Of a stretch of DNA of 64,000 bases, positions 5,126 through 20,598 are shown in pieces. Every line of letters begins with the position of its first letter. Position 1 is the stretch's first letter. Location: IMG/VR virus record IMGVR_UViG_3300030104_006433, positions 1-64,000 of that record; one strand, 5' to 3'. Origin of the DNA: a virus. The translations under genes were made by a program, and so were the position numbers. Under the pieces are notes generated by a model. That model was not told the origin of the DNA. It ran no database searches and was given only the letters and a program-made list of their open reading frames with translations.

Positions 5126-5140
5126 ATTAAAATAAAGGTT

Positions 5141-5710
5141 ATGAATAAATCAATTATATTACCCAGTTTTATCTCTTTAATTGGGATTGGGATTTTATCA
5201 GATAATGAAACTACAAATATAATAACAGATGAAAAAGTTACTGTTGTTGACTCAACATATGTTGAAGAAATAAATGGTATAGGAGGTGAATGGATTAAAG
5301 ATATTTACACAATTGAATTAAATCCAATTAAATTTACTAAAAAAGAAATCAATCAAATAAAATTAATAAAAGCATTGATTCAAGTTGAAAGTAGAGGTAA
5401 AGAGAATTGTGTTGGAGACAAACATTTAATTATACCTTCAATAGGTGTTTTACAAATTAGACCTATAATGGTTAGAGAAGTTAACCGCATATTAAAATTA
5501 TTAGGCGAAAATCAACGTTATAAAAATAAAGATAGATATAGTAGGGTTAAATCAATTGAAATGTTTATTATATGGAGAGATTATCACCATAAAAATGATA
5601 GTGATGAAGTAATAGCTAGATGTTGGAATGGGGGCCCAAAAGGGTATAAACGTAAAAAAACATTACATTATTGGAACAAAGTACAAAAAGAAATAAATAA
5701 ATTATTATGA
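5141..5710 (+). CDS. Lysozyme-like/lytic transglycosylase (SLT superfamily) with N-terminal hydrophobic anchor
   Basis: ALIQVES catalytic Glu motif, GVLQI, ARCWNGGP. Confidence 0.75.
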   Translation: MNKSIILPSFISLIGIGILSDNETTNIITDEKVTVVDSTYVEEINGIGGEWIKDIYTIELNPIKFTKKEINQIKLIKALIQVESRGKENCVGDKHLIIPSIGVLQIRPIMVREVNRILKLLGENQRYKNKDRYSRVKSIEMFIIWRDYHHKNDSDEVIARCWNGGPKGYKRKKTLHYWNKVQKEINKLL

Positions 5711-6117
5711 AATTAGATCCTGAAGAAGATATAGAGAACAAATATGGTGATGTATTTGAATATTAAATAAATAAAAAACAAACAATTATGAGTAAAAATT
5801 CAATTAGACAAACAGTAGCAACAGTAAGCAGTTGGAGAGAGGGATTATCCCATATCAAAGAACAAAAAAGAAAACAACTAGAGAGAAACAAAAGAAAAAA
5901 CAAAAAGAAAAGCTAAGCTTTCTCTTTACATTATTTACACCCTATAATATGTATATACAATGAGTCAAACCATTGAACAAAAAAGACTATCTATCTTGTA
6001 TGAGGCCCAAGATGAGATACAAAAGGAAAAAAACCCAAGTCCAAAAAAACAATTCTTAATCAAGTTAATGATAAACAAACTTGAAACAGAAATAGTTGAC
6101 GGTAGAACTAAAGGTAT

Positions 6118-7326
6118 ATGAGGTTATTAACTATTATTTTAATTTTAATACATTTTAATTCACTAAGTCAAACTTGTGTAACTGATGAGTATAATAAGCC
6201 CTTTATAGACTCTAATCCAAAAAAATATAAATTAATAGAGGAAAATCTTCAAAATTATTATAAAAATAAATCATATAATAAAATAATAATTCCTGTTGTA
6301 TTTCATGTAGTATGGATAAACAGAATCCAAAACCTTTCAACTAATGTTATACATCAACAGTTAGAGGTTTTAAATGAAATGTTTAATGCTCAAAATACTG
6401 ATACTAATAAGTTAGCTGATACATTGAAAAATTGGGTAGGTAATTTCAATATCAAATTTGAAATAGCACATCGTGACCCAAATGGGTTTCCAACTAATGG
6501 TATAACAAGAAAAAAAACAATACAACCTCACTTTTCATATTGGAACGATCCCGTTAAAAAATCTCATTATGGGACAGCACCTTGGCCTACTAATAGATAC
6601 TTAAATATTTGGATATGCGACTTAAATGAGGGATCAATGGGTTATGCACAATTTCCAGGTGGACCTGAAGAAACTGATGGAGTTGTTATTGATTGGCAGA
6701 CAGTTGGAAATCAAATTTATCCTTGGACAGCATTAGAAAATCACGAGTGGGCAAAAGGTAAAGTACTTACACATGAAGTAGGCCATTGGTTAAACTTATT
6801 TCACCCCTGGGGTAATAATTATGGTGGGTGTGGTGAAGACTTCATTCCAGAAACTTCATTACAAAAAGGTCCTATTAGACCATCAGATAATTGCCCTGAT
6901 ACTTTATTTAGTGAATGTCAAGATAGTGGGAGACTTTTTATAAGACATTATATGGATTATGCAGGTAGTTCTTGTATGGTTTGTTTTACTAAAAACCAAG
7001 TATTAAGAGGTTTAGCTTCATTACACACTTATAGAAGTGAAATGATTGAAAACTACGAACCTAGAATAGATATTAATGGGTTTGAAAATATTAAAATGTA
7101 TCCAACATCTATTAATGATAAGTTATATATTGAATTCCCAGAATATGAAGGTAAAATAGAGATTTTATTTTATAATTTACAGGGTCAATTACTAAAAAAA
7201 TCAACAATTGATGGTGAATGGTTTCACATAATTTATCCCTATGAATTAATACCTGGGATTTATTTAGTGAATGTATATCATAATGATATTAAAGTATTTA
7301 GTCAAAAAGTACTTAAAAACCCTTGA
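6118..7326 (+). CDS. M43 (pappalysin/ulilysin-like) zinc metalloprotease with signal peptide and T9SS C-terminal sorting domain
   Basis: IPVVFHVV, YLNIW, GYAQFPG, DGVVI, HEVGHWLNLFH, Met-turn YMDY; C-terminal YP...YNLQGQ...GIYLV...KV. Confidence 0.85.
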   Translation: MRLLTIILILIHFNSLSQTCVTDEYNKPFIDSNPKKYKLIEENLQNYYKNKSYNKIIIPVVFHVVWINRIQNLSTNVIHQQLEVLNEMFNAQNTDTNKLADTLKNWVGNFNIKFEIAHRDPNGFPTNGITRKKTIQPHFSYWNDPVKKSHYGTAPWPTNRYLNIWICDLNEGSMGYAQFPGGPEETDGVVIDWQTVGNQIYPWTALENHEWAKGKVLTHEVGHWLNLFHPWGNNYGGCGEDFIPETSLQKGPIRPSDNCPDTLFSECQDSGRLFIRHYMDYAGSSCMVCFTKNQVLRGLASLHTYRSEMIENYEPRIDINGFENIKMYPTSINDKLYIEFPEYEGKIEILFYNLQGQLLKKSTIDGEWFHIIYPYELIPGIYLVNVYHNDIKVFSQKVLKNP

Positions 7327-7402
7327 CACGTTTTGCTTGGCTTTTGGCTTAAAGGATGTTATATTTAGGTATAAGAAAGTTAAGAAAAATAATAAAGGTT
7401 AT
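7318..7402 (+). promoter_or_regulatory. Early promoter+leader cassette
   Basis: CTTGGC-N18-TATATTTA-GGTATAAGAAAGTTAAGAAA...AAAGGTTAT-ATG. Confidence 0.8.
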
Positions 7403-7831
7403 ATGAAAAAACAAATACCAAACAATTATTTAGATGCAATTAAAGTTACAATTGTGACTAAAGAAAATAAAACATTTACAAAACCAATAACAACATGGGT
7501 TACTGATAAAAGTATATCTATTGGTAATTTAAAAAATTATCTTAATCATCCAAGTGTTATTGATTTTGAATTAACATTTCCAAAACCAATTAATAAAAAT
7601 GGAAATGGATCATCTTCAACAAGTGGTAAAAAGTCCAAAAAACAAAATAAAGACATTCCATTTGAAATAATGTCAGATCTAATTGATGTTGCTCATTCTA
7701 AAGGTGTGGGGTGTAATAAAGAAAAAATATCAAGATTTAATCAATTTCTTGATTTTGATTTACATAAAGCTTTAGATTATAAATATGGATTTACAGGAGC
7801 TTCAAAATTACATACAATATTTAAAATATGA
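7403..7831 (+). CDS. Hypothetical early protein (start moved from 7271 to 7403)
   Basis: In-frame ATG at the end of the cassette. Confidence 0.7.
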   Translation: MKKQIPNNYLDAIKVTIVTKENKTFTKPITTWVTDKSISIGNLKNYLNHPSVIDFELTFPKPINKNGNGSSSTSGKKSKKQNKDIPFEIMSDLIDVAHSKGVGCNKEKISRFNQFLDFDLHKALDYKYGFTGASKLHTIFKI

Positions 7832-9084
7832 AAGAGTTACAAACATTTATAGAAGATATGAGAAGCACAAGTAGTGCTAATGAGAAGGTTGAAATTATAA
7901 AAAATTCAAGTACATTTATTCATAAAGTATTAGAAGCTGCTTATAACCCCTTCAAACAATATCATGTTACAAGTAAAACTTGTATAAAAAATAGTGATAA
8001 AATAACTAACCATAATTATCCTATTTTTGAGATGTTAGATAAATTAACTAATAGAGAAGTAACTGGACATGAAGCCATTGCTTTAATTAATGGTTTTAAT
8101 AGAAATACGGATGATGAAGTCATTTATAAAATAATAGATAAAGATTTAGGTATTAGAGCAGGTGATAAAGTAATTAATAAAGCAATACCAGGTCTTATTC
8201 CTACATTTAATGTTGCTTTGGCTCAAGAGTATAAAGGTAAATGTGATTGGAATGATGAATGGTATGCCTCTCGTAAATTAGATGGAGTTAGATGTTTAGC
8301 TATTGTTGATAAAGAAGGTAAATGTACACTCTATTCTAGGATGGGTAAAGAATTTACAACATTAGATAAAATTAAACATGCTATTGAATCAACTAATATT
8401 ATTAATACTGTTTTTGATGGTGAAATTTGTTTAATAGATGAAAATGGAGATGAAGATTTTAAAAGTGTAATGAAAGAATTAAGACGTAAAGACCATCAAA
8501 TTGAAAAACCTGTGTTTAAAATGTTTGATATGTTACATAAACCAGATTTTGATAATGGTAAATCAACAGAAAAACTATCAGAAAGATTACTTAAATTAAA
8601 AACATTCCTTCATAATGTTGAACCTAATTTAGGGTTACATTATTTAGATCAACATATAATTTCAGGTGATGATCATTTTGAATATTGGGGTAAAATATCT
8701 TCTAAAAATAATTGGGAAGGTTTTATGTTAAGAAAAAATGTTGGTTATGAAGGTAAGCGTAGTAAAAACTTAGTTAAAGTTAAGAAATTTTTTGATGCTG
8801 AATATATAGTATTAGATTATGATGTTGATAAACATGAAGTAGTTAGAGATGGCAAGTCTGAAACTATTGAAATGTTATCACAAGTATGGATTGAACATAA
8901 AGGCCATAAAGTAAAAGTTGGTAGTGGTTGGTCTCAAGAACAAAGATTACAATATATGGATGGGTCTATTGTTGGTAAATTAATCACTGTTCAATATTTT
9001 GAAGAGACATATAATGATAAAGGTGGTGTATCATTAAGATTTCCAACAGTAAAACATGTTTATGAAGGTAAAAGAGACATGTAA
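7828..9084 (+). CDS. lig: ATP-dependent DNA ligase
   Basis: Motif I KLDGVR, III FDGEI, IIIa FDML, IV EGFMLR, V KVK, VI SLRFP. Confidence 0.93.
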   Translation: MKELQTFIEDMRSTSSANEKVEIIKNSSTFIHKVLEAAYNPFKQYHVTSKTCIKNSDKITNHNYPIFEMLDKLTNREVTGHEAIALINGFNRNTDDEVIYKIIDKDLGIRAGDKVINKAIPGLIPTFNVALAQEYKGKCDWNDEWYASRKLDGVRCLAIVDKEGKCTLYSRMGKEFTTLDKIKHAIESTNIINTVFDGEICLIDENGDEDFKSVMKELRRKDHQIEKPVFKMFDMLHKPDFDNGKSTEKLSERLLKLKTFLHNVEPNLGLHYLDQHIISGDDHFEYWGKISSKNNWEGFMLRKNVGYEGKRSKNLVKVKKFFDAEYIVLDYDVDKHEVVRDGKSETIEMLSQVWIEHKGHKVKVGSGWSQEQRLQYMDGSIVGKLITVQYFEETYNDKGGVSLRFPTVKHVYEGKRDM

Positions 9085-9086
9085 TA

Positions 9087-9159
9087 ATGTTTGGCTTTTG
9101 GCTAAATGGATGTTATATTTACGAGGTAAGTAAGTTAAGAAATATATAAAATAAAGGTT
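9087..9159 (+). promoter_or_regulatory. Early promoter+leader cassette
   Basis: ATGTTTGGC...GATGTTATATTTACGAGGTAAGTAAGTTAAGAAATATATAAAATAAAGGTT-ATG. Confidence 0.85.
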
Positions 9160-9492
9160 ATGAAAAAAAGTAATAAATTAGTAAAACAAGTAAGTAGAGA
9201 AATAATAGCAGCAGGTGTTAATCTTGAAATGGATTATGAATTTGGTGATGTAGGTGGTGAAAGAGGTATTATAGAGAAAGATTATGCTTATGTAGGTTCA
9301 GGTAGATACAATGGTATAGAAGGATTTTATTTCAAAAGAGGTGACGATCAATGTTTTGATAATAAAGAGGAAAAAACAATTACAGAGATATTAAATAAAA
9401 ATGGATTCGAAGTTGATCATTTTTCACCATGGGAAATGGAATGGGATAGAGATAGATCATTTAGAGCTAGTGTTGGATTTTTTAAAAAATAG
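9160..9492 (+). CDS. Hypothetical early protein
   Basis: First gene after the cassette. Confidence 0.75.
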   Translation: MKKSNKLVKQVSREIIAAGVNLEMDYEFGDVGGERGIIEKDYAYVGSGRYNGIEGFYFKRGDDQCFDNKEEKTITEILNKNGFEVDHFSPWEMEWDRDRSFRASVGFFKK

Positions 9493-9616
9493 GAATTATG
9501 AGTAATAAGCATAATGATGAGTTAATGGAAAATTTATTTAATAAATTTATTGAAGCAGGTTACACAGATAAAGAAGCAGAAAAAGCAGTATTAGAAACAA
9601 TTAACATGTATTAAAT

Positions 9617-10168
9617 ATGAGTTTAAGAAAACAAAGTTTAGAAGTAAGAAATAAAGTTAAAGAAAAATTAAAAGAAATCACAGGATTTACATTTTGTGAG
9701 TATTATAATGACCTATATGGGAGAAAAGGTGGTTATGAAGTTAGAAGAATTAAAGGTATTATTATTGATCGGACAACAAATTATGATGAAAATCCAGATA
9801 AAGATTGGCACCATAAAAATGATTCTTTAAAATGGAAAGAAAAAATTGATGCAATGGATTTTGGAAATGATTTTAAAGTTGAATTTAACCCTGTTAGTAA
9901 AGCAAGAAGTATGGGCCTTGATTGGGTGAAAGAAAGTAGAAGAAGATGGGTTGAAGGACATAAAGATGGAAGTTTTTATTACTATGATGATTCACCTTCA
10001 GGTCCACCAAGGGGTACTGCTGAGGAGTATGATTATAGATTTAATAATTTAGATTATTACTTTACAATTAGAGTTATTTACAAAGATGAAATTGGTAGAT
10101 ATACACCTAGTGGAGTTATTAAAGATGGAAGTAGAGATAAAAATGGTAAATATTTTACAGGAAGTTAA
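9617..10168 (+). CDS. Hypothetical protein
   Basis: 183-aa ORF. Confidence 0.7.
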   Translation: MSLRKQSLEVRNKVKEKLKEITGFTFCEYYNDLYGRKGGYEVRRIKGIIIDRTTNYDENPDKDWHHKNDSLKWKEKIDAMDFGNDFKVEFNPVSKARSMGLDWVKESRRRWVEGHKDGSFYYYDDSPSGPPRGTAEEYDYRFNNLDYYFTIRVIYKDEIGRYTPSGVIKDGSRDKNGKYFTGS

Positions 10169-10169
10169 A

Positions 10170-10628
10170 ATGAAAAAGATAAATAAAGCAACAATAATAG
10201 ATCATTTTGATTATAAAGACCTTTATATAGGCAACTCCTCAGATTTTGAAAAATTACCTGAAGATGAAAAATTTAATGACGAATATATGATTGATGTAGA
10301 CCCAGGAATGTATCAAATGATATATTGGAATGATGAGGGTCCTGATTCTATGAGTCACAATAGTAAAAAAGAATATATAATAGAATCAGTTACTAATTTT
10401 TGGGGTGAAGATCAATTCATTCAAAAATTTCAAATTGAAGATAAAATCGATGAGTCAGGAGATGAGTGGGAAAGTGTTTTTAATAAACATGTAGAAGATA
10501 ATTTAGACATGTACTTTGAAGAATTAAAAAAATGTATTAACGATTCATATCCTGATAAAGATTCATCTCATGGAATTGTTCTTTTAGAAAATGATAAAAT
10601 AATAGCAGGTGAAGCAAGTAAAATATGA
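10170..10628 (+). CDS. Acidic hypothetical protein (start moved from 10086)
   Basis: In-frame ATG 1 nt after the upstream stop. Confidence 0.65.
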   Translation: MKKINKATIIDHFDYKDLYIGNSSDFEKLPEDEKFNDEYMIDVDPGMYQMIYWNDEGPDSMSHNSKKEYIIESVTNFWGEDQFIQKFQIEDKIDESGDEWESVFNKHVEDNLDMYFEELKKCINDSYPDKDSSHGIVLLENDKIIAGEASKI

Positions 10629-11074
10629 TGAATAAAAAATATATTTTATATACTACTAATATTGAATATGACACTGGAGAAGATGGTTATATGTACCAAC
10701 TAGTAGAAGCAAAAACAGGTGAAGAAAATGAAATTGGATTTGATCAACTACATTTTGATAAAAATGATAATCTTTTACAATTAGGTGTTGATTTTAATGA
10801 TTATGAACAAACCAGCTACCAAGAAGAAGAAGTATCTAAAGAAGAAGCTTTACAAGTATATAGTGAATTATTACATACTAAACAAAATAGATATAATATA
10901 AATAATCCTAAGTCAAAATTATTTGAATTAAATGAAAATGAAAAAGATACAAAAACATTAAATGCTTTAACTAAAAAATATGGTAAGGATATTGTTTTAT
11001 TTTGGCTAACAAATGGAAATTATGGAGAAAAATCAGATTGGGAAATTAAATATGAACAAGAAGAAAATAAATAA
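10625..11074 (+). CDS. Hypothetical protein
   Basis: ATGA overlap. Confidence 0.65.
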   Translation: MMNKKYILYTTNIEYDTGEDGYMYQLVEAKTGEENEIGFDQLHFDKNDNLLQLGVDFNDYEQTSYQEEEVSKEEALQVYSELLHTKQNRYNINNPKSKLFELNENEKDTKTLNALTKKYGKDIVLFWLTNGNYGEKSDWEIKYEQEENK

Positions 11075-11603
11075 ACTAGCAGAAGAAATATCTTTTAGAT
11101 TATTAGCAACTAAAAAACATGAAGATTTTGATTGGTTAGTTAAAAAATTATACTTGTTAGTTGATTCTGATTATGCAAAAGTAGTAAATGAAGAAAATTA
11201 CTTCAAAAAATACACTGAAGAAGAATGGAAGTATGAATTAGATCTAAATGTTGAGATGGCTAAAGAATTATTGGCTTATCAAAGAACACCACCATCAAAA
11301 AGAGTATGGGAAGACTTAGCTTCTGATTTATTACAATTACAGAAAAAAACTAACATTCCTACTAGTTTTACTTTTTTTGAAGAATGGGTTGAGAGTCAAA
11401 AAGTAAATGGATTACCTAACCTAAGTAGTGGTTCATTTTTTACAGGTTTAACTGATATAGATGGTTTATTAAGTGCTATGAATTTTGAGGAGTATGATAA
11501 AAAAACAGGAGAGGATTTATACACAGATGAAGAGTATGATAAAGCACAAAAATACCATACTGAAAAAATAAATAATGAAATTCCAGATTGGACTAAATAT
11601 TAA
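11052..11603 (+). CDS. Hypothetical protein (start probably 11052)
   Basis: ORF in operon. Confidence 0.65.
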   Translation: MNKKKINKLAEEISFRLLATKKHEDFDWLVKKLYLLVDSDYAKVVNEENYFKKYTEEEWKYELDLNVEMAKELLAYQRTPPSKRVWEDLASDLLQLQKKTNIPTSFTFFEEWVESQKVNGLPNLSSGSFFTGLTDIDGLLSAMNFEEYDKKTGEDLYTDEEYDKAQKYHTEKINNEIPDWTKY

Positions 11604-11785
11604 TGGGAAAAATAGGAAAATACTTACGCAAGAAAAAACACAGATCTTATTTAGAAAAATCTGTTATTGAAATGAGAAGTAAAATATGTAGGCAAGCTTG
11701 TTTAACAGGAAATGTTGACTTGAATGATAGACATTTATTCTTAAAATATAATAATAGGTTAAAAAAATGGGATGATGAAAATTAA
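11603..11785 (+). CDS. Small basic hypothetical protein
   Basis: TAATG coupling. Confidence 0.6.
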   Translation: MGKIGKYLRKKKHRSYLEKSVIEMRSKICRQACLTGNVDLNDRHLFLKYNNRLKKWDDEN

Positions 11786-11790
11786 AAATT

Positions 11791-12345
11791 ATGAATTTCT
11801 TTTCTGACATTAAAATAAAAAGAGGATTTAATCAAAGAGTTTATGATGAGTATGGGCCTGAAGGATTAATAAAGTATTTGTTAAGTGTAGATGAAATACC
11901 TAAAAATTTAGATTTAACTAAACTTAAAAAAATACTTAAATCTGGTGATGTAATTGGAAGAATTGTTGAAGATTTATATGCTGAAAAACATGGATGTTTA
12001 ATATCAGAATCTGATAATCAAAATACTATAGGTTATGATGCTGAATTTAAAGATGGTACTAGAAAAGAATTAAAATCAACTTCTACAAAAACAATAAAAA
12101 ATATGTTACAAATAAATAATGTTCACACGAAAGAGAATGAATGTCATTTCATGGTAATATTAGATTTATATAATTATAGAATGTTTGAGATACCACATAA
12201 TGACTTTTTTGATAAATTTAGTTTTTATTACACTTATGACAAATACGGAAGGAAAAAAACAAGTAAAATGGTTTGGGATGCTGAATATTCAGGTACTAGA
12301 GCTAAAAGAAATACTGATTTATTAATTAAATATGAAATAAAATGA
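11791..12345 (+). CDS. Putative PD-(D/E)xK restriction-endonuclease-like protein
   Basis: GRIVE...GYDA...ELKS spacing fits the E..D..ExK catalytic triad. Confidence 0.45.
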   Translation: MNFFSDIKIKRGFNQRVYDEYGPEGLIKYLLSVDEIPKNLDLTKLKKILKSGDVIGRIVEDLYAEKHGCLISESDNQNTIGYDAEFKDGTRKELKSTSTKTIKNMLQINNVHTKENECHFMVILDLYNYRMFEIPHNDFFDKFSFYYTYDKYGRKKTSKMVWDAEYSGTRAKRNTDLLIKYEIK

Positions 12346-12617
12346 AGATAAAAATAATCATGATATTAATAATAACAAACATAATATCTTGTGTTTGGTT
12401 ATTAGGAGAAAACCGTACCACAAATAGAGAAAATGATGGATTGGTTAAGGAAATGAATCAAGTAAAATATGAGAGAGATACCTTAGCAGACCAATATGTT
12501 GAATTGTTAGAGGATTATGGCAGATGTTTTGATGAGGTATTACGATTAGAGGATGAGAATCAAATATTAGGTAGCTTAGTTGCTAGTGGAGATGAAAATA
12601 ATTTAACAATGCAATAA
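12342..12617 (+). CDS. Membrane-anchored coiled-coil protein
   Basis: N-terminal TM segment plus heptad repeats. Confidence 0.6.
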   Translation: MKIKIIMILIITNIISCVWLLGENRTTNRENDGLVKEMNQVKYERDTLADQYVELLEDYGRCFDEVLRLEDENQILGSLVASGDENNLTMQ

Positions 12618-12618
12618 A

Positions 12619-12843
12619 ATGAAAGGAGTTCAAAACATACTTTTTAGATACAATGAACAAATAAGCAAATGGGATTGCTTTAGTAGAGATGACTATAAGG
12701 ATTATTGGAACAGACGTTCCTTAATTTATGTAGGAAGAGGAGATACACCTAGACAGGCTTTAAAAGTGTATAGAAATATGAAAGCAAATGGAATTGAACC
12801 TTGGGTTCAAGGAATTGACCCAAATGAAAAAAGATCATATTAA
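12619..12843 (+). CDS. Hypothetical protein
   Basis: ORF in operon. Confidence 0.6.
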   Translation: MKGVQNILFRYNEQISKWDCFSRDDYKDYWNRRSLIYVGRGDTPRQALKVYRNMKANGIEPWVQGIDPNEKRSY

Positions 12844-12844
12844 A

Positions 12845-12932
12845 AACCTTTGTACGTAAATATTTGGCTTCTGGTTAAATTGATGTTATATTTATGAGGT
12901 AAGAAAGTTAAGAAATATATAAAATAAAGGTT
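12845..12932 (+). promoter_or_regulatory. Early promoter+leader cassette
   Basis: AACCTTTGTACGTAAATATTTGGC...GATGTTATATTTATGAGGTAAGAAAGTTAAGAAATATATAAAATAAAGGTT-ATG. Confidence 0.85.
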
Positions 12933-13079
12933 ATGAATAGAGTAGAATTATTAGATAAATTAGAAGAGTTAAGTATTGAATATCAAATGGCATTAGATTG
13001 GGGAAAAATCCAACATTTATCTGTGGATGGGCTTAAGAATGTTTTAGATATGGTGGAGAGAATTTATAAATTAAGATAA
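12933..13079 (+). CDS. 48-aa early protein (not in the ORF track)
   Basis: MNRVELLDKLEELSIEYQ... begins at the cassette ATG. Confidence 0.65.
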   Translation: MNRVELLDKLEELSIEYQMALDWGKIQHLSVDGLKNVLDMVERIYKLR

Positions 13080-13093
13080 AAAATTAAGGTTAT

Positions 13094-13537
13094 ATGGCAT
13101 TATTCAAATTTCAAAATTTAAACAAACATGGTAATCTAAGAACTAGAATAGTTCATAGTCCCACCTCACAATTTTCATTTAAACCAAAAGGCTTTGGAAA
13201 ATTTGTAAATGTACAAAGATTTTATTATGAAATGGAACATGCATATTTAAGTGCTGCATTATGGATTAATAATGAGGGTGATAAAATATTATTACCAACA
13301 ATGCAAAAAGTACATCCAAAAACAACATTGGATGATATTAAAGTAATTAGACCAAAACCTAAAAAAAGAACAGAACCTATCATAGAAACTAATATTAGCA
13401 GCTCAGGTGAAGTTACTTATGAAACTAAATACTACCCAGATTCAGGTAATTACTATTGTAGTTGTCCAGGTACATGGAGAGCGAAAGATAGAAGATGTAA
13501 ACATATTAAAGCATTAGAATTAAAAAATAAAAAATAG
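13094..13537 (+). CDS. SWIM zinc-finger protein
   Basis: C-terminal CSCP-x9-CKH. Confidence 0.75.
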   Translation: MALFKFQNLNKHGNLRTRIVHSPTSQFSFKPKGFGKFVNVQRFYYEMEHAYLSAALWINNEGDKILLPTMQKVHPKTTLDDIKVIRPKPKKRTEPIIETNISSSGEVTYETKYYPDSGNYYCSCPGTWRAKDRRCKHIKALELKNKK

Positions 13538-13686
13538 ATGAGCAAATTGGAAGAATTACTTTATAATGCTGAAGAGCATGGGCAAAGATTTAAAATGTTT
13601 GAAGAAATTGAAAAAATAAAATTAAAACATCCTAATTTACCTTTGGAAAAAGTATATGAAAAGGCTTATCAAAAAACAATGAAGGT

Positions 13687-13830
13687 ATGAGAAGTAAAGA
13701 AGAAATAATGTTGGCAAAATTAATAATAGGAATATCAGGATTTGTGTTAGTAGCTGTTTTTCCACCTATTTTATTTGTAGGAATATTAGGATGGGCTGGA
13801 TACACTTTATATAAAAATAATGCAAGATAA
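13687..13830 (+). CDS. 47-aa membrane microprotein
   Basis: Long hydrophobic stretch LIIGISGFVLVAVFPPILFVGILGWAGY. Confidence 0.55.
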   Translation: MRSKEEIMLAKLIIGISGFVLVAVFPPILFVGILGWAGYTLYKNNAR

Positions 13831-14299
13831 AGTATTAGATTATATTAAAGATGTTTTAGAAGTCCCAAGACAAGAATATAATGGAATGCCAGCTTGTCCT
13901 TTTGCAAAACAAGAAAGAGAATCAAATAATATCTATTTAGATGAAATAAGTGATGAGAATGATTTTTTGATGTGTATGAATAAATTTGTTCATTCAAATA
14001 AAAACTCAGCTGTGTTTATTCAAAATGAAGAAATAGATGAAAAAGAAACTAAAGCTTATGAGATTTTTTTAAATAATATATTAAATGAATTAGACATAAA
14101 TTATTGGAAAGCAATTTGTATTAATCCAAATGATAAATTAAATGTTGAAGGATTAAATATTAGATCATTAGCACCTTGTTTTTTAATATTAATTAATCCA
14201 AAAAAACAAATAAATGAAGCTCATTCATCACTTTTAAAAACAAAGTATTTTGATAAAATGAGTAATAAGTATAAAAAATATTTAGGAAAAATAAAATGA
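13820..14299 (+). CDS. Hypothetical protein, DUF1415-like N-terminus
   Basis: PACPFAK motif. Confidence 0.5.
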   Translation: MQDKVLDYIKDVLEVPRQEYNGMPACPFAKQERESNNIYLDEISDENDFLMCMNKFVHSNKNSAVFIQNEEIDEKETKAYEIFLNNILNELDINYWKAICINPNDKLNVEGLNIRSLAPCFLILINPKKQINEAHSSLLKTKYFDKMSNKYKKYLGKIK

Positions 14300-14376
14300 T
14301 AGAAATAGTTTGTATATTCTTTATTGGTTTAGCTCTAATTGGAGTTTGGGTCATTGAAGGTGAAGTAAAAAAATAA
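14296..14376 (+). CDS. 26-aa single-TM microprotein
   Basis: MIEIVCIFFIGLALIGVWVIEGEVKK; ATGA coupling. Confidence 0.5.
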   Translation: MIEIVCIFFIGLALIGVWVIEGEVKK

Positions 14377-14377
14377 T

Positions 14378-14465
14378 AACCTTTGCACGTAAATGTTTGG
14401 CTACTGGGGATATTGATGTTATATTTACGAGGTAAGTAAGTTAAGAAATATATAAAATAAAGGTT
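14378..14465 (+). promoter_or_regulatory. Early promoter+leader cassette
   Basis: From GATGTTATATTTACG to the ATG it is identical to the 9087 copy. Confidence 0.85.
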
Positions 14466-14654
14466 ATGTTAAGCAGAGAAAATATAGAAAAGTTAAGTTT
14501 TAGTTGGAGTAGTAAATCTCAATATGATTGGGAATTAAGTTGTAATTTAAATTCAGATAATCCAGTTATCACATGGGATGAATATATTGAAGCAAATGAT
14601 AGACATGCTTCATTTGAGATTGCGTTTGAGAAATTAGGTGTTAAATTTATATAA
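14466..14654 (+). CDS. Hypothetical early protein
   Basis: First gene after the cassette. Confidence 0.7.
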   Translation: MLSRENIEKLSFSWSSKSQYDWELSCNLNSDNPVITWDEYIEANDRHASFEIAFEKLGVKFI

Positions 14655-14664
14655 AATAAAGGTT

Positions 14665-14829
14665 ATGGGAGTTCAAGAAGTAATATTAAAAATAGAAGAA
14701 CCAACAAGAGAAGATAAAATTAAACAATTAATTAAATACTTAGATGGAATGTTAGAATTTGATTCCAAAATAGGTACAGTTGTTGATTGTGGAGTTTGTA
14801 GTAATAGTGGTTGTAAAGTTTGTAAATAA
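14665..14829 (+). CDS. Small protein with C-terminal CxxC-x4-CxxC zinc site (start moved from 14638)
   Basis: AAAGGTT-ATG; CGVCSNSGCKVC. Confidence 0.6.
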   Translation: MGVQEVILKIEEPTREDKIKQLIKYLDGMLEFDSKIGTVVDCGVCSNSGCKVCK

Positions 14830-14841
14830 AAAATTAAGGTT

Positions 14842-14973
14842 ATGAAAAAAGTTTTAAAATATATTAATAGTAATATAATAGAGTTAGTAGCACTTAGAGA
14901 CACAGCAATTTTAGTTGTTATGTTTTACATTGCTTGGTTAATTGTTAAATTTGCAATTTTAAATTTATCATGA
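14842..14973 (+). CDS. 43-aa membrane microprotein
   Basis: AAGGTT-ATG start; hydrophobic C-terminal half. Confidence 0.55.
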   Translation: MKKVLKYINSNIIELVALRDTAILVVMFYIAWLIVKFAILNLS

Positions 14974-15215
14974 GAGAAAATATAAAAAGATATACAGTAG
15001 TAATAGACACATATGTCTATGCTCAAGGAGATGAAGAAGCTAGAAAAATAGCTCACAGTATTAAAAGAAATATTACTGAAGGTGATCATACTAAAGTGAT
15101 AGAAATATCAGAAACACCATTTGCGAGTCTTCAATCTAGAGAATTAAAAGATCTCAGTGAACCAAAAATAAATGGAGATACAGTTTGGACTGAGAAAGAT
15201 GAATTACCATTTTAA
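14970..15215 (+). CDS. Small protein with SSB-like acidic tail
   Basis: Ends in ...KDELPF. Confidence 0.6.
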   Translation: MRENIKRYTVVIDTYVYAQGDEEARKIAHSIKRNITEGDHTKVIEISETPFASLQSRELKDLSEPKINGDTVWTEKDELPF

Positions 15216-15370
15216 TTATGAAAAAAATGAAAGGTAGATATTATTGTGAAGAAAATGATAGTCCAACTTATCAAGCTATAATAGCTGAAAAGTTAAGGTT
15301 TGAAAAGAAAGAAATTATCTCAACAAAAAGAGGAAAGAGAAAAGTACGAGTCAAAGTGACTATTGACTAG

Positions 15371-15541
15371 TGTGCCACACATGATGAGAAATAGTGTAGT
15401 TAACTATAGTGGATATACGGGTGATGGACAGGAAGAGCCACTTAACGTGATGACGCCCAGGTTTAGATTAGCCTGCCGAAATAAAAATAAGGTATAAAAC
15501 TAAAGACAACGGTTCCTTAGCTTAATCTACTTTAAACCCCC
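15371..15541 (+). ncRNA. Candidate structured intergenic RNA
   Basis: GC-richer 170-nt gap; helices GGGTG/CGCCC, GGTTTA/TAAACC, TAGATTA/TAATCTA, CTAA/TTAG. Confidence 0.35.
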
Positions 15542-15622
15542 CTGTGGATATGCTTGGCTTCTGGCTAAATTGACGTTATATTTATGATGTAAGTAAGTTA
15601 AGAAAAACGTTAAATTAAGGTT
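15534..15622 (+). promoter_or_regulatory. Early promoter+leader cassette
   Basis: CTTGGC...GTTATATTTATGATGTAAGTAAGTTAAGAAA...AAGGTT-ATG. Confidence 0.85.
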
Positions 15623-15988
15623 ATGAATAAATTTAGTATTAAAAATCAGGAAGAAAAAGTTGAATGTTTAATGTGGATCTCAGATCTATATAAAGACGTT
15701 TATGGTTTTAGACCAAGAGGTTATAATTTTGAAGCATGGTCATTTCAAGAATTAACTGATTTTGTTAATGACTTATCTGAGGAGAGTGAAAAAGAAGCTG
15801 AGTATGAGAGACAAATGGAGGAAAAAGCAATTAAAGATGTTATGTCTTTAGGTTGTAATAAAGAAACAGCTTTAAGATGGTTAGATCAAGCAGATGCTTA
15901 TTTTATTTATGGTGATGATGAGTTTTATCAAGATAGTATTGATAAGTATGGTTGGGTGGTTAAACACTTTGATAACACTTGTGTGTAA
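15623..15988 (+). CDS. Conserved-looking phage protein
   Basis: ISDLYKDVYGFRPR motif, recurrent in phage early proteins. Confidence 0.7.
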   Translation: MNKFSIKNQEEKVECLMWISDLYKDVYGFRPRGYNFEAWSFQELTDFVNDLSEESEKEAEYERQMEEKAIKDVMSLGCNKETALRWLDQADAYFIYGDDEFYQDSIDKYGWVVKHFDNTCV

Positions 15989-16069
15989 GTGTTTGGCCTC
16001 CAGGTAAATGGATGTTATATTTACGAGGTAAGTAAGTTAAGAAATACGTAAAAATTAAAAATTAAGGTT
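15974..16069 (+). promoter_or_regulatory. Early promoter+leader cassette
   Basis: TTTGGC...GATGTTATATTTACGAGGTAAGTAAGTTAAGAAA...AAGGTT-ATG. Confidence 0.85.
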
Positions 16070-16834
16070 ATGTTAAAAGAAAATGTTAAAATAGTTAAGA
16101 GATGGAAGCCAGAATTGGTTAAGATGAATGATATTAAATTCGATAAGAATTTATTCAAACCAATGAAAACAGGTAAAAAAGTGGATTCACTTTTAAGTAG
16201 TGAAGGTGGGTTAATGAAAGGTACAAATTTTGCTTTTGTTGGAGATCCAGGAGTTGGTAAAAGTACTGTTATGTTAGATATTTTATCTGATCTACAAAAG
16301 AAAAAACAAAAAGTATTATTCATCTCAGGTGAGATGACAAGCATTGATATGTTTGGTTATGTTAAAAGATTTCCTAAATTTGGTAAATTACCTATTTTGT
16401 TTATGGGTGATTACATAGAAAAAGATCCAATGGTTGTATTAACTAGTGTTTTGAGTGAAGGATTTGATGTTGTGTTAATAGATAGTATGGCTGAAGTTTG
16501 TACTAATATTGTTGATTACCATGGAGGTACTATGAAAAATGCTGAAACTAAAGTATTGAACTTATTAGAGAAGCATAACAAAGCTGAAAATTTAAATAAA
16601 ACAAATACCACGTTTTTAATAATTCAACAAGTTACTAAAGGTGGTGAATTTGCAGGATCAAATAGATTTAAACATATGTTAACTGGAATGGGTCATATGA
16701 AATTTACTGAAGGAAGTAGAGTATTATTTTTCAGTAAAAATAGAAGAGGTGGCCAAATGGATAAATTACATTTTAGTTTAGATCAAAAGAATCACGTTGG
16801 TTGGTTATTCACAGAAGCAATGAACGGAGAGTAA
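16070..16834 (+). CDS. RecA-superfamily ATPase, RadA/Sms-like (no Zn finger or Lon-like domain)
   Basis: Walker A GDPGVGKST, LFISGE, Walker B VLIDS, QVTKGGEFAGS...HM, KNR. Confidence 0.8.
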   Translation: MLKENVKIVKRWKPELVKMNDIKFDKNLFKPMKTGKKVDSLLSSEGGLMKGTNFAFVGDPGVGKSTVMLDILSDLQKKKQKVLFISGEMTSIDMFGYVKRFPKFGKLPILFMGDYIEKDPMVVLTSVLSEGFDVVLIDSMAEVCTNIVDYHGGTMKNAETKVLNLLEKHNKAENLNKTNTTFLIIQQVTKGGEFAGSNRFKHMLTGMGHMKFTEGSRVLFFSKNRRGGQMDKLHFSLDQKNHVGWLFTEAMNGE

Positions 16835-16905
16835 TATTCAGAATCATAACCTGATAAATAGGGGTGGCATCTTAACTTACAACTTACCTTAAGCCACCCC
16901 TTCTC
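16835..16905 (+). ncRNA. Candidate antisense sRNA / 3'UTR hairpin complementary to the early leader
   Basis: 9-bp stem AGGGGTGGC/GCCACCCCT; loop carries TCTTAACTTAC and ACTTACCT; CATAACCT lies upstream; all are reverse complements of leader blocks. Confidence 0.6.
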
Positions 16906-16907
16906 TT

Positions 16908-16996
16908 ACCTTTGTACACAAATGTTTGGCTACCGGTTAAATGGATGTTATATTTATGAGGTAAGAAAGTTAAGAAACACAATAAAAATTAAGGTT
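16908..16996 (+). promoter_or_regulatory. Early promoter+leader cassette
   Basis: ACCTTTGTACACAAATGTTTGGC...GATGTTATATTTATGAGGTAAGAAAGTTAAGAAA...AAGGTT-ATG. Confidence 0.85.
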
Positions 16997-17404
16997 ATGA
17001 AAAAAGTAGAAATTAAAAAAGCAGTAAAGATAGTTCAGGATGAATTAACTAAGTATGGTTTAATGACACCAGGTAATGGTATTGATTTTAAAGTTTCAAT
17101 TATGGTGGAACAAATTGAGAATGATAGAGGTAGAGTGGTTCCACATTTAGTAGCTAAGTGGAATGAAACAGCTAGTATGATTAATGAGACTAAAGATGGT
17201 TTTACATATGGTATATTAGAGAGAGAAAGTTTTGGTGAATTAAATAGATATTTTTGTGCTGAATTATTCGTTAAAGGTATTACTCAAAGAGCAGCATGGA
17301 TTAAAGCTGATCATAAAGATTGTGTTGAGTATTTAAAATCAGAACCATTTGGCCACCCAGCACTGTTTCCAGTGTGGAAAGAGAGTCAAAAAGTAAGTGC
17401 GTAA
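16997..17404 (+). CDS. Hypothetical early protein (start moved from 16922)
   Basis: In-frame ATG at the cassette end. Confidence 0.7.
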   Translation: MKKVEIKKAVKIVQDELTKYGLMTPGNGIDFKVSIMVEQIENDRGRVVPHLVAKWNETASMINETKDGFTYGILERESFGELNRYFCAELFVKGITQRAAWIKADHKDCVEYLKSEPFGHPALFPVWKESQKVSA

Positions 17405-17484
17405 ATGTTTGGCTACCAGGGATATTGATGTTATATTTAGGTATAAGTAAGTTAAGAAATACGTTAAATTAAAAAATAAAGGTT
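17404..17484 (+). promoter_or_regulatory. Early promoter+leader cassette
   Basis: ATGTTTGGC...GATGTTATATTTAGGTATAAGTAAGTTAAGAAA...AAAGGTT-ATG. Confidence 0.85.
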
Positions 17485-18255
17485 ATGTTAAAATTAGAAA
17501 AATTAAATAATAAAGTTGTAGAATTAGATAATAAGATTTGGTCAATAAGGGTTGAAAATGAAAATTCAACTTCAACTGTTTTAAAAAATTCATATTTTCC
17601 ATTTATTGATGAAGTTAAATTTGCTGGTGAAGATTATATTTACTTGAATAATAAAGATGGTAAAGAAATTTGCACATTATCACTTAGAAAAAAACATTGG
17701 AATGATGTTAATTTTAACTATATGGAGATTGGTTATTATTCAACTAGAGTTAGTACTAATGATTCATTCGAAATGGATAGATTAATTACATTAGGAAAAA
17801 TAACAGAAATTGTAAAAACAAATTCCGAGTCAATATTATTTGATATTCATAATTTAAGAAAAGAAAATAGTAAAGAAATAAGTAAATTAAGTAAAGAAAA
17901 GTATTCATTAGAAAAAGAAATAAATACCTTAAACAAAGAAATAAAAGACAAAGCAAAAGAAGAAAATTTAAAAACTCTGTTTAACGGTGTTAATATAGAG
18001 CCTACATATATACAGGTTAGAAGTAATACTCATGTTAGTAATGTTAAGAATATTAAATTCAAAAAATGGACTAATGATACTAAAAGATCACTTACAATTG
18101 AGTTCACATGTGATCACAATATCTATAATTTTGAGGAAGAAAAATATAATACTACAACTAGAGTTTTTGAGTATGATAAAGTGAGACTTGATAATGTAAG
18201 ACATTTCATTTGTGATTTGAATGAGTTTTTACCTAAAGTAAAAGAATTAGTATAA
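17485..18255 (+). CDS. Hypothetical coiled-coil early protein
   Basis: 256-aa ORF after the cassette. Confidence 0.75.
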   Translation: MLKLEKLNNKVVELDNKIWSIRVENENSTSTVLKNSYFPFIDEVKFAGEDYIYLNNKDGKEICTLSLRKKHWNDVNFNYMEIGYYSTRVSTNDSFEMDRLITLGKITEIVKTNSESILFDIHNLRKENSKEISKLSKEKYSLEKEINTLNKEIKDKAKEENLKTLFNGVNIEPTYIQVRSNTHVSNVKNIKFKKWTNDTKRSLTIEFTCDHNIYNFEEEKYNTTTRVFEYDKVRLDNVRHFICDLNEFLPKVKELV

Positions 18256-18332
18256 TGAAAATAATATTATTAATAATAGTAGGTGTCTGTTTAATAGGAT
18301 TGTGGATTAAAGGAATTGATATTATAAATTAA
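18255..18332 (+). CDS. 25-aa single-TM microprotein
   Basis: MKIILLIIVGVCLIGLWIKGIDIIN; TAATG coupling. Confidence 0.5.
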   Translation: MKIILLIIVGVCLIGLWIKGIDIIN

Positions 18333-18343
18333 AAATAAAGGTT

Positions 18344-18562
18344 ATGTATAAAGTTAGATTAAGAAAACCATATGGAAAAATTTATAATGAAATAGCTACA
18401 TTTGAACAAGAATGGTTTGCTAAAGAATTTGTTGATGCAATTAAAGGTAAATTGTATGATGTAGTTGAAATTCATGAGGGTAAAAAAGTGATCTATTCAA
18501 CTCAAAAAAGAGTATTGAATAATCATGATGTTAACTTAAGGAATAAAAAAGAAATAATATAA
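18344..18562 (+). CDS. Hypothetical protein
   Basis: AAAGGTT-ATG start. Confidence 0.65.
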   Translation: MYKVRLRKPYGKIYNEIATFEQEWFAKEFVDAIKGKLYDVVEIHEGKKVIYSTQKRVLNNHDVNLRNKKEII

Positions 18563-18631
18563 AAAATGAGCCGAGAAACAAATATTCCAGCGACGAGGAA
18601 GAAAACGTATACGGTGAAGAAGTATAATATG

Positions 18632-18668
18632 CTTGGTGGTATTAAACCACTTGGGGGTATTAAACCCC
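18632..18668. repeat. Tandem 18-bp repeat forming twin hairpins
   Basis: GTGGT-ATTAA-ACCAC and GGGGT-ATTAA-ACCCC. Confidence 0.75.
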
Positions 18669-18850
18669 TGAATAAAACAATGGGTGGGAAACTAAATAAG
18701 TAGGTGATAAACAAATGGAGTTAAATGGAGTGGTGTGATGGTATGTGGAAAACATATAGGGTGTGGGTGGAATGAGATGTGGCTAATGTTAGCCCATTTA
18801 TGGCGCAAGCCAAACATTTTTAGTGTAAAATAAATTATATACCTAATTGG

Positions 18851-18901
18851 ACACCCCCCGCGGTAATAGTTTGGCCTCCACGTTGATTTTCATTATATTT
18901 A
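18851..18901 (+). promoter_or_regulatory. Host-sigma-type promoter without the leader block
   Basis: TTTGGC at 18870 and TATATTTA at 18894 (same 24-nt offset as the cassettes). Confidence 0.7.
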
Positions 18902-18923
18902 ACCGATGTTAAAATCACGAGAT

Positions 18924-19004
18924 ATGGAAATATTAATTGGTATAGCTATAGTTGTTTTATTCTCTGGAATATTCATATACGGCTATTTAACATATAAAGA
19001 ATAA
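18924..19004 (+). CDS. 26-aa single-TM microprotein
   Basis: MEILIGIAIVVLFSGIFIYGYLTYKE directly after the promoter. Confidence 0.5.
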   Translation: MEILIGIAIVVLFSGIFIYGYLTYKE

Positions 19005-19032
19005 AAAGATTAATAATATAAAACGAGGTATT

Positions 19033-19145
19033 GATCATAGGGCCCACCTAGTGTAGTACGGCGCCATGAAACAATAGTACACCAACACTATAGACACCTA
19101 TGTCATAACCAGTTATAAGCTCCCAAATGTGGGATAAGGGAGTTT
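19033..19145 (+). ncRNA. Candidate structured RNA / leader of the 19164 gene
   Basis: Nested helices CATAGG/CCTATG, TAGTGT/ACACTA, GTAC/GTAC; alternative TCCCA/TGGGA vs CTCCC/GGGAG. Confidence 0.4.
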
Positions 19146-19163
19146 CATTTTAATAAAAGTTAT

Positions 19164-19517
19164 ATGGAAGAAAAAATAAAAACAACAAAACGTAAAGGAA
19201 GAAAAAAAGGATCAACAACCCGATATTGCCTCATTCAGGATGAAATGTTAGGTAAATATGAAATACATGTTGATGAATCTAATCATTGTTTTATATTAGT
19301 AGATAAAGAAACTGGTTCAACTGAGGGATATTATACTTCATTACCATATGCTTTAAAACGTGTGTTGAAAGATAAGTATGTTCCTGGAGGTAAGAATGGA
19401 GAAACGTATACGTTACAAGAATATATCACACAAATGAATAAACTAGGTAATGCAATGGCAAAACTATTAGTGCCTGCACATTGGCAATTCAAACCTGGTT
19501 TAGATAAACACAACTAA
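19164..19517 (+). CDS. Hypothetical protein with basic AT-hook-like N-terminus
   Basis: KRKGRKKGS. Confidence 0.65.
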   Translation: MEEKIKTTKRKGRKKGSTTRYCLIQDEMLGKYEIHVDESNHCFILVDKETGSTEGYYTSLPYALKRVLKDKYVPGGKNGETYTLQEYITQMNKLGNAMAKLLVPAHWQFKPGLDKHN

Positions 19518-20340
19518 TACACGGTAATCACACACATAGCTGTGGTTATAACCACTAACATGTTACGTGTGGTATGTTATTGTATAGTTAAAGTTGTATA
19601 CTAGTATTAGTGGCCCCGTATTACTATATTAAATTAGGGGGTGGCTATTACTCTGTACTTAGTAAATTATGTTAGATAACGTATCCCAACTATATTGTGT
19701 ATAATGTTGTAACCATAAAATAATATTGTGAATCGCGTATTACAACTATATTGTGTAGCTATAGTATCGCCAACATAATGTTGTGCGTACGTACGTGTAT
19801 AGTACTTAATACATAATACCCATGTATACTGATATCCATCGATACTAGTATATTACGGGAAAGAAAGTAAATGTATTTTTAGTTCGAAAACGATCCTTAC
19901 ACATCGATGCATATATACAAATATATACAATTTGCCATTTTAACCCACAGGTATAAAATCCAAAGAATCCGAAATTCTTCTTTTTATAAATCTTTAGGTA
20001 TCGAATAAGGTATATACTATGTATTGATATGGATGTGGATTTAATATTGGAACTTCAAATAATATGTTTAACATATGGTATGTGGATGTTATTCAAATTC
20101 CATAACAGGAGAGATGAAAAATAGAGCCAAGCTTCATCCTATATTATATATTCCAGTGTAAAACAATGTGGTAAAACCAATTGAGATTAAACCAATTACA
20201 ACGCTACCAATATACATCCAGAGTATTCCATATTATTCTTCCTACCCATTTAATTTACCTAGGTTGGAAACAATGGTCTCTATACTAAGGTATGTAAATA
20301 ATTGCTGTATATACGTATCTCTATATTGAGGTATGTAAAG
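19518..20340. repeat. Palindrome- and direct-repeat-dense non-coding island (possible origin, genome end or packaging/injection signal)
   Basis: GTGGTTATAACCAC, TAACATGTTA, ATACTAGTAT x2, CGTACGTACG, CAACTATATTGTGTA x2, TCTCTATAyTrAGGTATGTAAA x2. Confidence 0.7.
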
Positions 20341-20362
20341 AGAGTTACTTTTTTGAGTGTTT

Positions 20363-20403
20363 GCTTGGCTTTTGGATTTTTCTTCATTATATTTATATAA
20401 AAA
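20363..20403 (+). promoter_or_regulatory. Host-sigma-type promoter
   Basis: CTTGGC at 20364, TATATTTA at 20388. Confidence 0.7.
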
Positions 20404-20598
20404 ATGAAGGTTATGATAATATATCTCACAATTGGAATAGTGTTAATGTTTTTAATTGAATTTTCTAATCATGTTAATAAGGAAAAATTAGAATATTTAG
20501 GTGAAGAAGCATCAAAATTTAATATGTTCGAAAGAGTGATTGGTATTCTTATTTGGCCTGTTATTATATTTTTAGCAATTAGAAATTATTTAAAATAA
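20404..20598 (+). CDS. Small two-TM membrane protein
   Basis: Two hydrophobic helices; alternative start at 20413 (AAGGTT-ATG). Confidence 0.65.
   Translation: MKVMIIYLTIGIVLMFLIEFSNHVNKEKLEYLGEEASKFNMFERVIGILIWPVIIFLAIRNYLK

Follow-up and report, generated by a model that had tools for sequence, protein, structure and literature searches.

A phage RadA-like early mRNA whose 3' tail mirrors its own leader: a candidate cis fold-back brake in uncultured marine Bacteroidota phages

The untranslated stretch at the 3' end (3'UTR) of an early RadA-like gene in an uncultured marine Bacteroidota phage carries the complements of two parts of its own leader, the 5' end and the start-codon region. The match between leader and tail recurs with different sequences from one phage lineage to the next, is restricted to the RadA-like gene and involves blocks located at the predicted ends of the transcript. 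The best explanation, to which we give an even chance of being correct on the sequence and folding evidence, is that the element acts as a cis 5'UTR/3'UTR fold-back brake on the RadA-like mRNA and includes a terminator-like hairpin. If this is true, the two ends would pair as RNA within one molecule, and the effect on expression would be repressive.

The DNA analysed here, referred to as the window, comes from an uncultured marine Bacteroidota phage and comprises the initial 64 kb of a viral record from marine metagenomes that is 160.5 kb long in all. Megablast of positions 15000-19000 against deposited phages gave no match, and the relatives found by tblastn were all at no more than 37% identity. 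The early leader, AGGTAAG(T/A)AAGTTAAGA ... AAGGTTATG, is present in eight copies on the + strand of the window (at 7369, 9124, 12897, 14430, 15587, 16026, 16959 and 17441; span 7369..17457), all of them possible targets in trans. The cassette alignment places every copy 3' of one common promoter cassette of about 100 nt; the cassettes span ~7260-17500 and have the order Bacteroidota-type promoter (TTTG, 20 nt, TATATTTA), leader AGGTAAG(T/A)AAGTTAAGA, A/T spacer and AAGGTTATG. In Flavobacterium the sigma-A box TAnnTTTG is located at -12..-5 (PMC9723704), and on this basis the predicted +1 is the fifth base after the -7 box, the G of GTAAG. The motif AAGGTTATG is found 12 times in the window (5135-20415), always at early gene starts. 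It has a Shine-Dalgarno (SD)-like AAGG 2 nt before the ATG, though the host phylum is SD-less. Distant relatives use other fixed motifs before the ATG, for example AAAACGGAAAA(Y)ATG in L067, L070 and L071 (L numbers are our handles for loci). The cassettes seem to mediate gene shuffling similar to that of the PeSLs of T4-type phages because gene order differs between the window and L001, whose RadA-like protein is 99% identical: a gene whose product begins with MNKVEIKK lies upstream of the RadA-like gene in L001 (L001:800-3300), while a similar gene, beginning with MKKVEIKK (16997-17404), lies downstream of it in the window.

One of the eight cassettes belongs to the RadA-like gene. Its predicted promoter, of the Bacteroidota sigma-A type according to the cassette alignment, occupies 15992..16023 on the + strand, with the -33 TTTG at 15992-95, a 20-nt spacer and the -7 box TATATTTA at 16016-23. 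The 5'-end block of the leader, AGGTAAGTAAGTTAAGA, follows at 16026..16042 (+) with G16028 as the predicted +1, and the start block AGGTTATG lies at 16065..16072 (+) with the ATG at 16070. The gene itself (16070..16834, +) encodes a RadA/RecA-superfamily P-loop ATPase of 254 aa and ends with the stop codon TAA at 16832-34. Pfam matches of the protein to RecA, KaiC and AAA_24 are weak, as is the match to PHROG, and there are matches to DnaB-like P-loop proteins; the family profile matches the solved RadA structures 5lkm and 8rxc with E ~5e-10. The next early promoter cassette (16925..16999, +) has TTTG at 16925-28, TATATTTA at 16949-56, the leader at 16959-75 and AGGTTATG at 16992-99, and drives a 135-aa gene starting at 16997. 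Since this cassette starts ~90 nt past the stop codon, the RadA-like gene should form a monocistronic unit with a 3'UTR of ~70 nt. Contigs from marine metatranscriptomes (X18, X19 and X20; three runs from two studies) show 88-99% identity to the 3' part of the RadA-like gene. They span 16699-16864 (ends at ~16847-16864), and positions 16872-16925 are uncovered, likewise in the DNA run used for comparison. RNA libraries thus contain the RadA-like gene or something closely related to it, although these libraries may include carried-over DNA.

The element after the stop codon lies exactly where the first-pass annotation had placed it. Ten nucleotides past the stop there is the anti-start block CATAACCT (16845..16852, +), the complement of AGGTTATG. 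It is followed by a hairpin (16860..16901, +) with a 9-bp GC stem (AGGGGTGGC at 16860-68 and GCCACCCCT at 16893-901) and a 24-nt loop (16869-92), which is predicted to be a probable 3'-end hairpin or weak intrinsic terminator. The loop presents the anti-5'-end sequence (16870..16889, +), made up of TCTTAACTTAC (16870-80), an A and ACTTACCT (16882-89), and complements leader positions 1-17 with a 3-nt bulge. RNAfold reproduces the GC hairpin as it had been described, with the 24-nt anti-leader loop open; the energy of the hairpin alone is -16.6 kcal/mol. Behind it comes the pyrimidine/T-rich tail TCTCTTACCTTTG (16902..16914, +). This tail includes a third CTTACCT (16905-11), which can pair with the 5' AGGTAAG as a nested three-way alternative and is not kept in L008/L009.

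The complementarity of the 3' tail to the early leader is not a matter of chance. The duplex of loop and leader has 17 bp, a 3-nt bulge and an energy of -18.5 kcal/mol. For the six leaders with no more than one mismatch, no more than 1-2 in 500 dinucleotide shuffles equal it; for the leaders at 17441 and 7369, which have three mismatches, 5/500 and 81/500 shuffles reach the duplex energy. When the whole 5'UTR is compared with the whole 3'UTR in the window, z = -7.9 and 0/300 shuffles are as good. The initial claim of complementarity is borne out by these shuffles, and our results also support the view that nothing of the leader has been kept except its two functional blocks, at the 5' end of the mRNA and around the start codon. 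The reverse complement of the leader 11-mer occurs once in the window, CATAACCT and ACTTACCT occur once each on its + strand, and there is no reverse-strand copy of the leader 15-mer in the 160.5-kb record. Another copy of CATAACC, at 19104, was considered as a similar element and rejected, there being no leader complement nearby. We also discarded a minus-strand reading of the leader-like sequence and AGGTTATG, the ORF being just 12 codons long here and 3 codons in lineage E (see below). The covariance models of Rfam 15 gave no family match; the single hit elsewhere is at chance level (E = 0.15), far below the gathering score.

Given the shuffle statistics, and the covariation in ~12 lineages described below, we find it hardly credible that the element is just an ordinary terminator hairpin, with a loop that is leader-like by chance or through a decaying inverted duplication. 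A GC stem followed by a T/C-rich tail would fit a terminator, and TTTTCT follows the copies of lineage B. However, the 24-nt loop is far beyond the usual 3-8 nt, and the tail TCTCTTACCTTTG stands in place of a U tract, so that the stem alone has the form of an intrinsic terminator. A scan for sigma-70 promoter and terminator consensus sequences, which is not informative for this type of host, did not call the hairpin. A role in forming the 3' end is still plausible because F-type and other relatives have an ordinary terminator after the anti-leader.

Searches with the RadA-like protein gave 30 viral and 58 metagenomic loci at 22-99% identity, and leader and 3'UTR were taken from the usable ones. 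In ~12 lineages, some with as little as 42-44% protein identity, the RadA-like 3'UTR complements its own 5'UTR, and what is mirrored has an unrelated sequence from lineage to lineage. The matched block of lineages A/B is GTAAGTAAGTTAAGA. Lineage B (L008, L009 and L044; 78% identity) has the same architecture as the window, with a loop that is a 15/15 exact complement of GTAAGTAAGTTAAGA and a stem that shows a compensatory T:A to C:G change. In lineage D (L011, 80%) the leader GTGTTAGAAAGT... is matched by the loop ACTTTCTAACAC (12/12), and CATAACC is present as well, while lineage C (L010, 78%) has a short loop and a weak match of ACTTACA to the leader TGTAAGT. Lineage E (L002-L006, L018 and L039-L041; 82-89%) has the leader TGTAGTTAA..., with TTAACTACA and (A)CATAACC directly after the stop codon. 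In lineage F (L013-L017 and L042; 72-75%) the complement of the 5' end (CTGTAAATAA / GTAAATAATAAT) is joined to that of the pre-ATG block (AATAAAGGT / TAAAGGTTA); the middle of the leader is omitted and the mirror sits between the stop codon and an ordinary TTCG-loop terminator. In a distant group at 42-57% identity the matched blocks are CGTAAATAAT plus TAAAAACCA (L051), GTAAATAA plus TAAAACCAAA (L062), AACACAAAACAAAA (L052/L053), ACCCAAAA plus TATGCGA (L054), AAAACGGAAA (L067) and GTTATGAC (L076). CATAACC is kept after the stop codon in lineages A-E. The display of the anti-leader in a loop holds for lineages A-D only: in many lineages the element is found in a plain single-stranded 3'UTR ahead of an ordinary terminator, with no loop.

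The element is absent in lineages L019-L026, L043, L045 and L070-L073. In L049 (2302-2400) and L050 (2250-2350) the GTTTTGTTTTGTGTTG tail of L052/L053 is kept and the leader, GAGGGTAAAGTTAGAGGAAAATAA, has no complement to it, which looks like a recent swap of promoter and leader that broke the match. The mismatch in L049/L050 and the several lineages without the element indicate that it is dispensable. In L076 the promoters upstream and downstream of the RadA-like gene each have the same palindromic hairpin, AGAGCTAGGCATACCTAGCTCT, in front of them; this hairpin and promoter form a true PeSL-type terminator-promoter composite.

Covariation between leader and tail in related phages had been set as a test beforehand, and its outcome was positive. 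We compared the 3'UTR with the leader's first 20 nt and took the longest exact complement. Its length is 7-15 nt for pairs from one lineage and mostly 4-8 nt across lineages, with up to 9 nt where the leader is partly shared, so the matrix is block-diagonal. Specifically, among 22 lineage representatives the own match was at least 9 nt in 10/22, against 10% of the cross pairs, and the observed mean or count was reached in 0/100,000 permutations (p<1e-5). The effect is also gene-specific. When each leader was compared with the 60 nt past the stop codon of its gene, a match of at least 9 nt was found for 13/23 RadA-like genes and for 0/45 other promoter-proximal genes of the same loci. Compared with shuffled 3'UTRs, the own duplex had z = -13.1 in L009, -7.8 in L011, -6.0 in L054, -4.7 in L042 and -4.4 in L051, and moderate values in L052/L053, L076, L010 and L013. 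In lineage E (z = -0.6), L062, L067, L015 and the lineages without the element the own-duplex energy was not significant.

The position of the matching blocks is informative as well. One block starts within -2..+1 of the predicted transcription start in 12/18 lineages, and the other spans -9..+5 around the ATG in most lineages. The anti-start block is located 0-20 nt past the stop codon and reaches the gene's own second codon in L054 (TATGCGA), L076 (GTTATGAC), L004/L018 (GGTTATGTT) and L009. In L054 the heptamer TATGCGA is found nowhere else in the locus, although the upstream block is common to three leaders. Even within a lineage the RadA-like gene can have different upstream and downstream neighbours, yet the tail is retained, and a comparison of the window with L008/L009 shows higher conservation in the 3'UTR than in the adjoining C-terminal coding sequence. 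The block positions, the second-codon match, the changing neighbours and the conservation of the tail together locate the selection in the + strand transcript of the RadA-like gene. Neither a DNA repeat nor an action on the downstream gene agrees with these observations.

A DNA-level feature could take the form of operators for one phage DNA-binding protein, or of recombination scars or sites between promoter cassettes. Sites of a single protein would also co-change between lineages, and the promoter cassettes are clearly shuffled among close relatives, as happens with PeSLs (PMC2839356, PMC4122927). We nevertheless regard this possibility as very improbable. The mirroring is limited to transcribed blocks; it begins at the predicted +1 and includes the start and second codons, which are features of the RNA. 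The inverted copy is always found between the stop codon and the terminator of the RadA-like gene, and inverted promoter remnants are absent from the window element. Moreover, repeats of 7-15 bp located ~800 bp apart are short for recombination sites and differ in every lineage. A count of G.U versus A.C at helix mismatches, meant to separate selection on RNA from selection on DNA, draws on just six mismatches.

The tail might also serve the next gene, if anti-leader and CAUAACCU paired with the leader and AUG of the following cassette (16959-16999) in read-through transcripts. The downstream gene would then be translated from its own promoter only, for which the T4 genes e, 49 and I-TevI are reportedly precedents. 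The next leader is just 70-150 nt off, and the anti-start block CATAACCT fits the downstream gene's AGGTTATGA by 9 nt, as compared to 8 nt for its own start. Where no promoter intervenes in lineage E loci, a GC hairpin stands between CATAAC and the GTTATG of the next gene. In L003:3742-3820, L006:3742-3820 and L018:3739-3815 (also in L007, L028 and L030) CATAAC(C) and (G)GTTATG flank the nested hairpin CCCCCA..AGCGCG-TAA-GCGCT..TGGGGG, and with this arrangement the anti-start block could sequester the start codon of the downstream gene as well, which hints at coupled or occluded translation. Such a filter on read-through seems improbable to us: there is free variation in the downstream gene and its leader, and through all of it the tail continues to match the RadA-like leader. 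The next leader is CGACGTAAATAAAAA in L011, there are four different downstream genes in lineage E, and in L004, L018 and L054 the anti-start block matches its own second codon better than the downstream one.

The first-pass annotation had proposed a single small RNA (sRNA) that switches off the whole early regulon. A hairpin-protected sRNA derived from the 3'UTR would use its loop and CAUAACCU to pair with all eight early mRNAs, at their 5' ends and AUGs, and so turn the early class off. Such pairing in trans is possible in this phage because the eight early cassettes carry the same leader: pairing of the eight leaders with the loop has energies between -14 and -18.5 kcal/mol, apart from one leader with -9.5 kcal/mol, and their pairing with the pre-hairpin block lies between -7.7 and -12.2 kcal/mol. 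The display of target 5'-end antisense in a loop resembles RNA-OUT/RNA-IN of IS10, and in relatives, where one to three leaders match, the matched leader type is often common to two or three genes (L011, L018, L054). An initiation-blocking base-pairing sRNA, FopS, is known in Bacteroidota (PMC11697453). As the tail fits the seven other leaders as well as its own, cis and trans action are indistinguishable in this genome. The comparison with relatives, however, does not support a one-RNA switch as the conserved function. Their element mirrors the RadA-like gene's own leader and, in L054, L076 and L004/L018, its second codon, while most other early leaders differ; in L011 the RadA-like leader type is found at only 2/8 promoters. 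The element follows one gene only, and inspection of the sequence by eye revealed no separate Bacteroidota-type promoter just upstream of it. Pairing in cis is also favoured because the element is made 1:1 with the leader on one molecule. For these reasons action in trans seems unlikely to us. We are equally sceptical of a variant in which the hairpin-protected RadA-like tail outlives its message and closes the whole early class, as an early-to-middle switch that evolved from a gene-specific fold-back. Contacts of the tail with the other seven mRNAs could be a lineage-specific side effect. The comparative data speak instead for another part of the original proposal, pairing in cis with the own leader together with a role as terminator.

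Folding of the complete mRNA agrees with cis pairing in most cases and sets limits to it. When the full mRNA of ~900 nt was folded with nested structures, the mirror blocks were joined in the minimum free energy (MFE) structure of 10/11 representatives. The window is the exception, with no long-range pairs in the full-mRNA MFE and 7.5 expected pairs in the ensemble; here the hairpin loop surrounds the sequence that complements the 5' end, so pairing of this sequence is a pseudoknot. Co-folding of the window sequences keeps the hairpin, pairs AGGUUAUG with CAUAACCU and pairs the 5' AGGUAAG with CUUACCU at 16905-11, at -32.9 kcal/mol. A 17-bp helix cannot fit into a closed 24-nt loop without partly opening the stem. 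We infer from the models that pairing in the window would be either partial (11-nt block, -13.7 kcal/mol) or would spread by opening of the stem. In lineage E the two blocks cannot pair at once since they are not colinear. In a control with folded chimeric mRNAs the own tail was the best in 3/4 columns; the U-rich F-type tail pairs with any A-rich leader, and for this tail energy alone therefore shows no specificity.

In the cis fold-back that we prefer, CAUAACCU, 10 nt past the stop codon, would pair with the start-codon block AGGUUAUG, and the loop of the GC-stem hairpin with the first 15-17 nt of the transcript. Once the 3'UTR has been transcribed, the tail would fold back on the leader and close the mRNA, hiding its 5' end and AUG. 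In Flavobacterium, where SD sites are absent, translation is tuned by mRNA structure (PMC6847099). Because Bacteroidota mRNAs have no SD and initiation needs an unstructured region, the fold-back duplex should block new initiation. Each transcript would then be translated mainly during its synthesis, giving a limited burst of protein. Instead or in addition, the duplex may affect decay, either as an RNase III site as in icaR or by protection as in hbs, and the hairpin would double as a terminator-like 3' end. We may speculate that the anti-start block, being within reach of the terminating ribosome, keeps the mRNA open as long as translation goes on. A short fold-back should be an effective and simple regulator in a host whose SD-less initiation depends on open mRNA structure.

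To our knowledge, long-range pairing between both UTRs of a bacterial mRNA is limited to a handful of cases (hok, icaR and hbs), and we found no description of it in the literature for early mRNAs of dsDNA phages. RNA-OUT of IS10 likewise displays in a loop a sequence complementary to its target, RNA-IN, at the 5' end and start region. It is a separate, fully antisense RNA with its own promoter, whereas the antisense sequence here shares both strand and transcript with the leader and follows ~800 nt downstream of it. In Bacteroides, which belongs to an SD-less phylum, the sRNAs FopS and GibS base-pair at the 5' ends of mRNAs and thereby suppress initiation (PMC11697453). Unlike the RadA-like 3'UTR element, they are stand-alone chromosomal sRNA genes. 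If action in trans is real in phages with a single leader type, the element would amount to a minimal switch that times the early class, and a one-RNA switch, if true, would point to a widespread and undescribed way of timing phage early translation. PeSLs of T4-type phages are repeated early-promoter cassettes tied to gene shuffling between close relatives (PMC2839356, PMC4122927). In them a terminator stem-loop stands before every promoter, while only 1/8 cassettes of the window (16959) is preceded by a hairpin, which sets the window apart from a PeSL array; PeSLs also have no leader complementarity, unlike the hairpin described here.

The closest systems in mechanism are hok, icaR and hbs, none of which is related in sequence. 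In the hok mRNA of the plasmid R1 hok/sok system the extreme 5' end pairs with the 3' end (tac/fbi), and the full-length transcript is closed and untranslatable (PMC9841398). Long-distance complementarity between the 5' and 3' ends is common to hok and the RadA-like mRNA. Unlike hok, the RadA-like element has no sequence or gene relation to that system, no toxin, no Sok-like partner and no sign that 3' processing would open the mRNA again, and its tail complements the start codon directly. In icaR of Staphylococcus aureus a 3'UTR motif pairs with the translation initiation region, blocks initiation and makes a substrate for RNase III, and there, too, both cis and trans action are conceivable (PMC3868564). 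The icaR motif belongs to a long 3'UTR and pairs with the Shine-Dalgarno sequence. The RadA-like mRNA is that of a phage, with a 3'UTR of ~70 nt and no SD; its AUG and 5' terminus would be the targets, and one block lies in a terminator-like loop. In hbs of Bacillus subtilis two UTRs of one mRNA form a 14-bp pairing (PMC5737220). That pairing modulates RNase Y cleavage and stabilises the mRNA with the start codon not hidden, whereas the blocks described here cover the start codon. The sequence features of this fold-back class are all found in the RadA-like gene: complementarity between 5'UTR and 3'UTR in one unit, compensatory change and coverage of the initiation region. What the phages add to these systems is covariation across a broad clade of uncultured marine Bacteroidota phages, which amounts to a natural series of compensatory variants.
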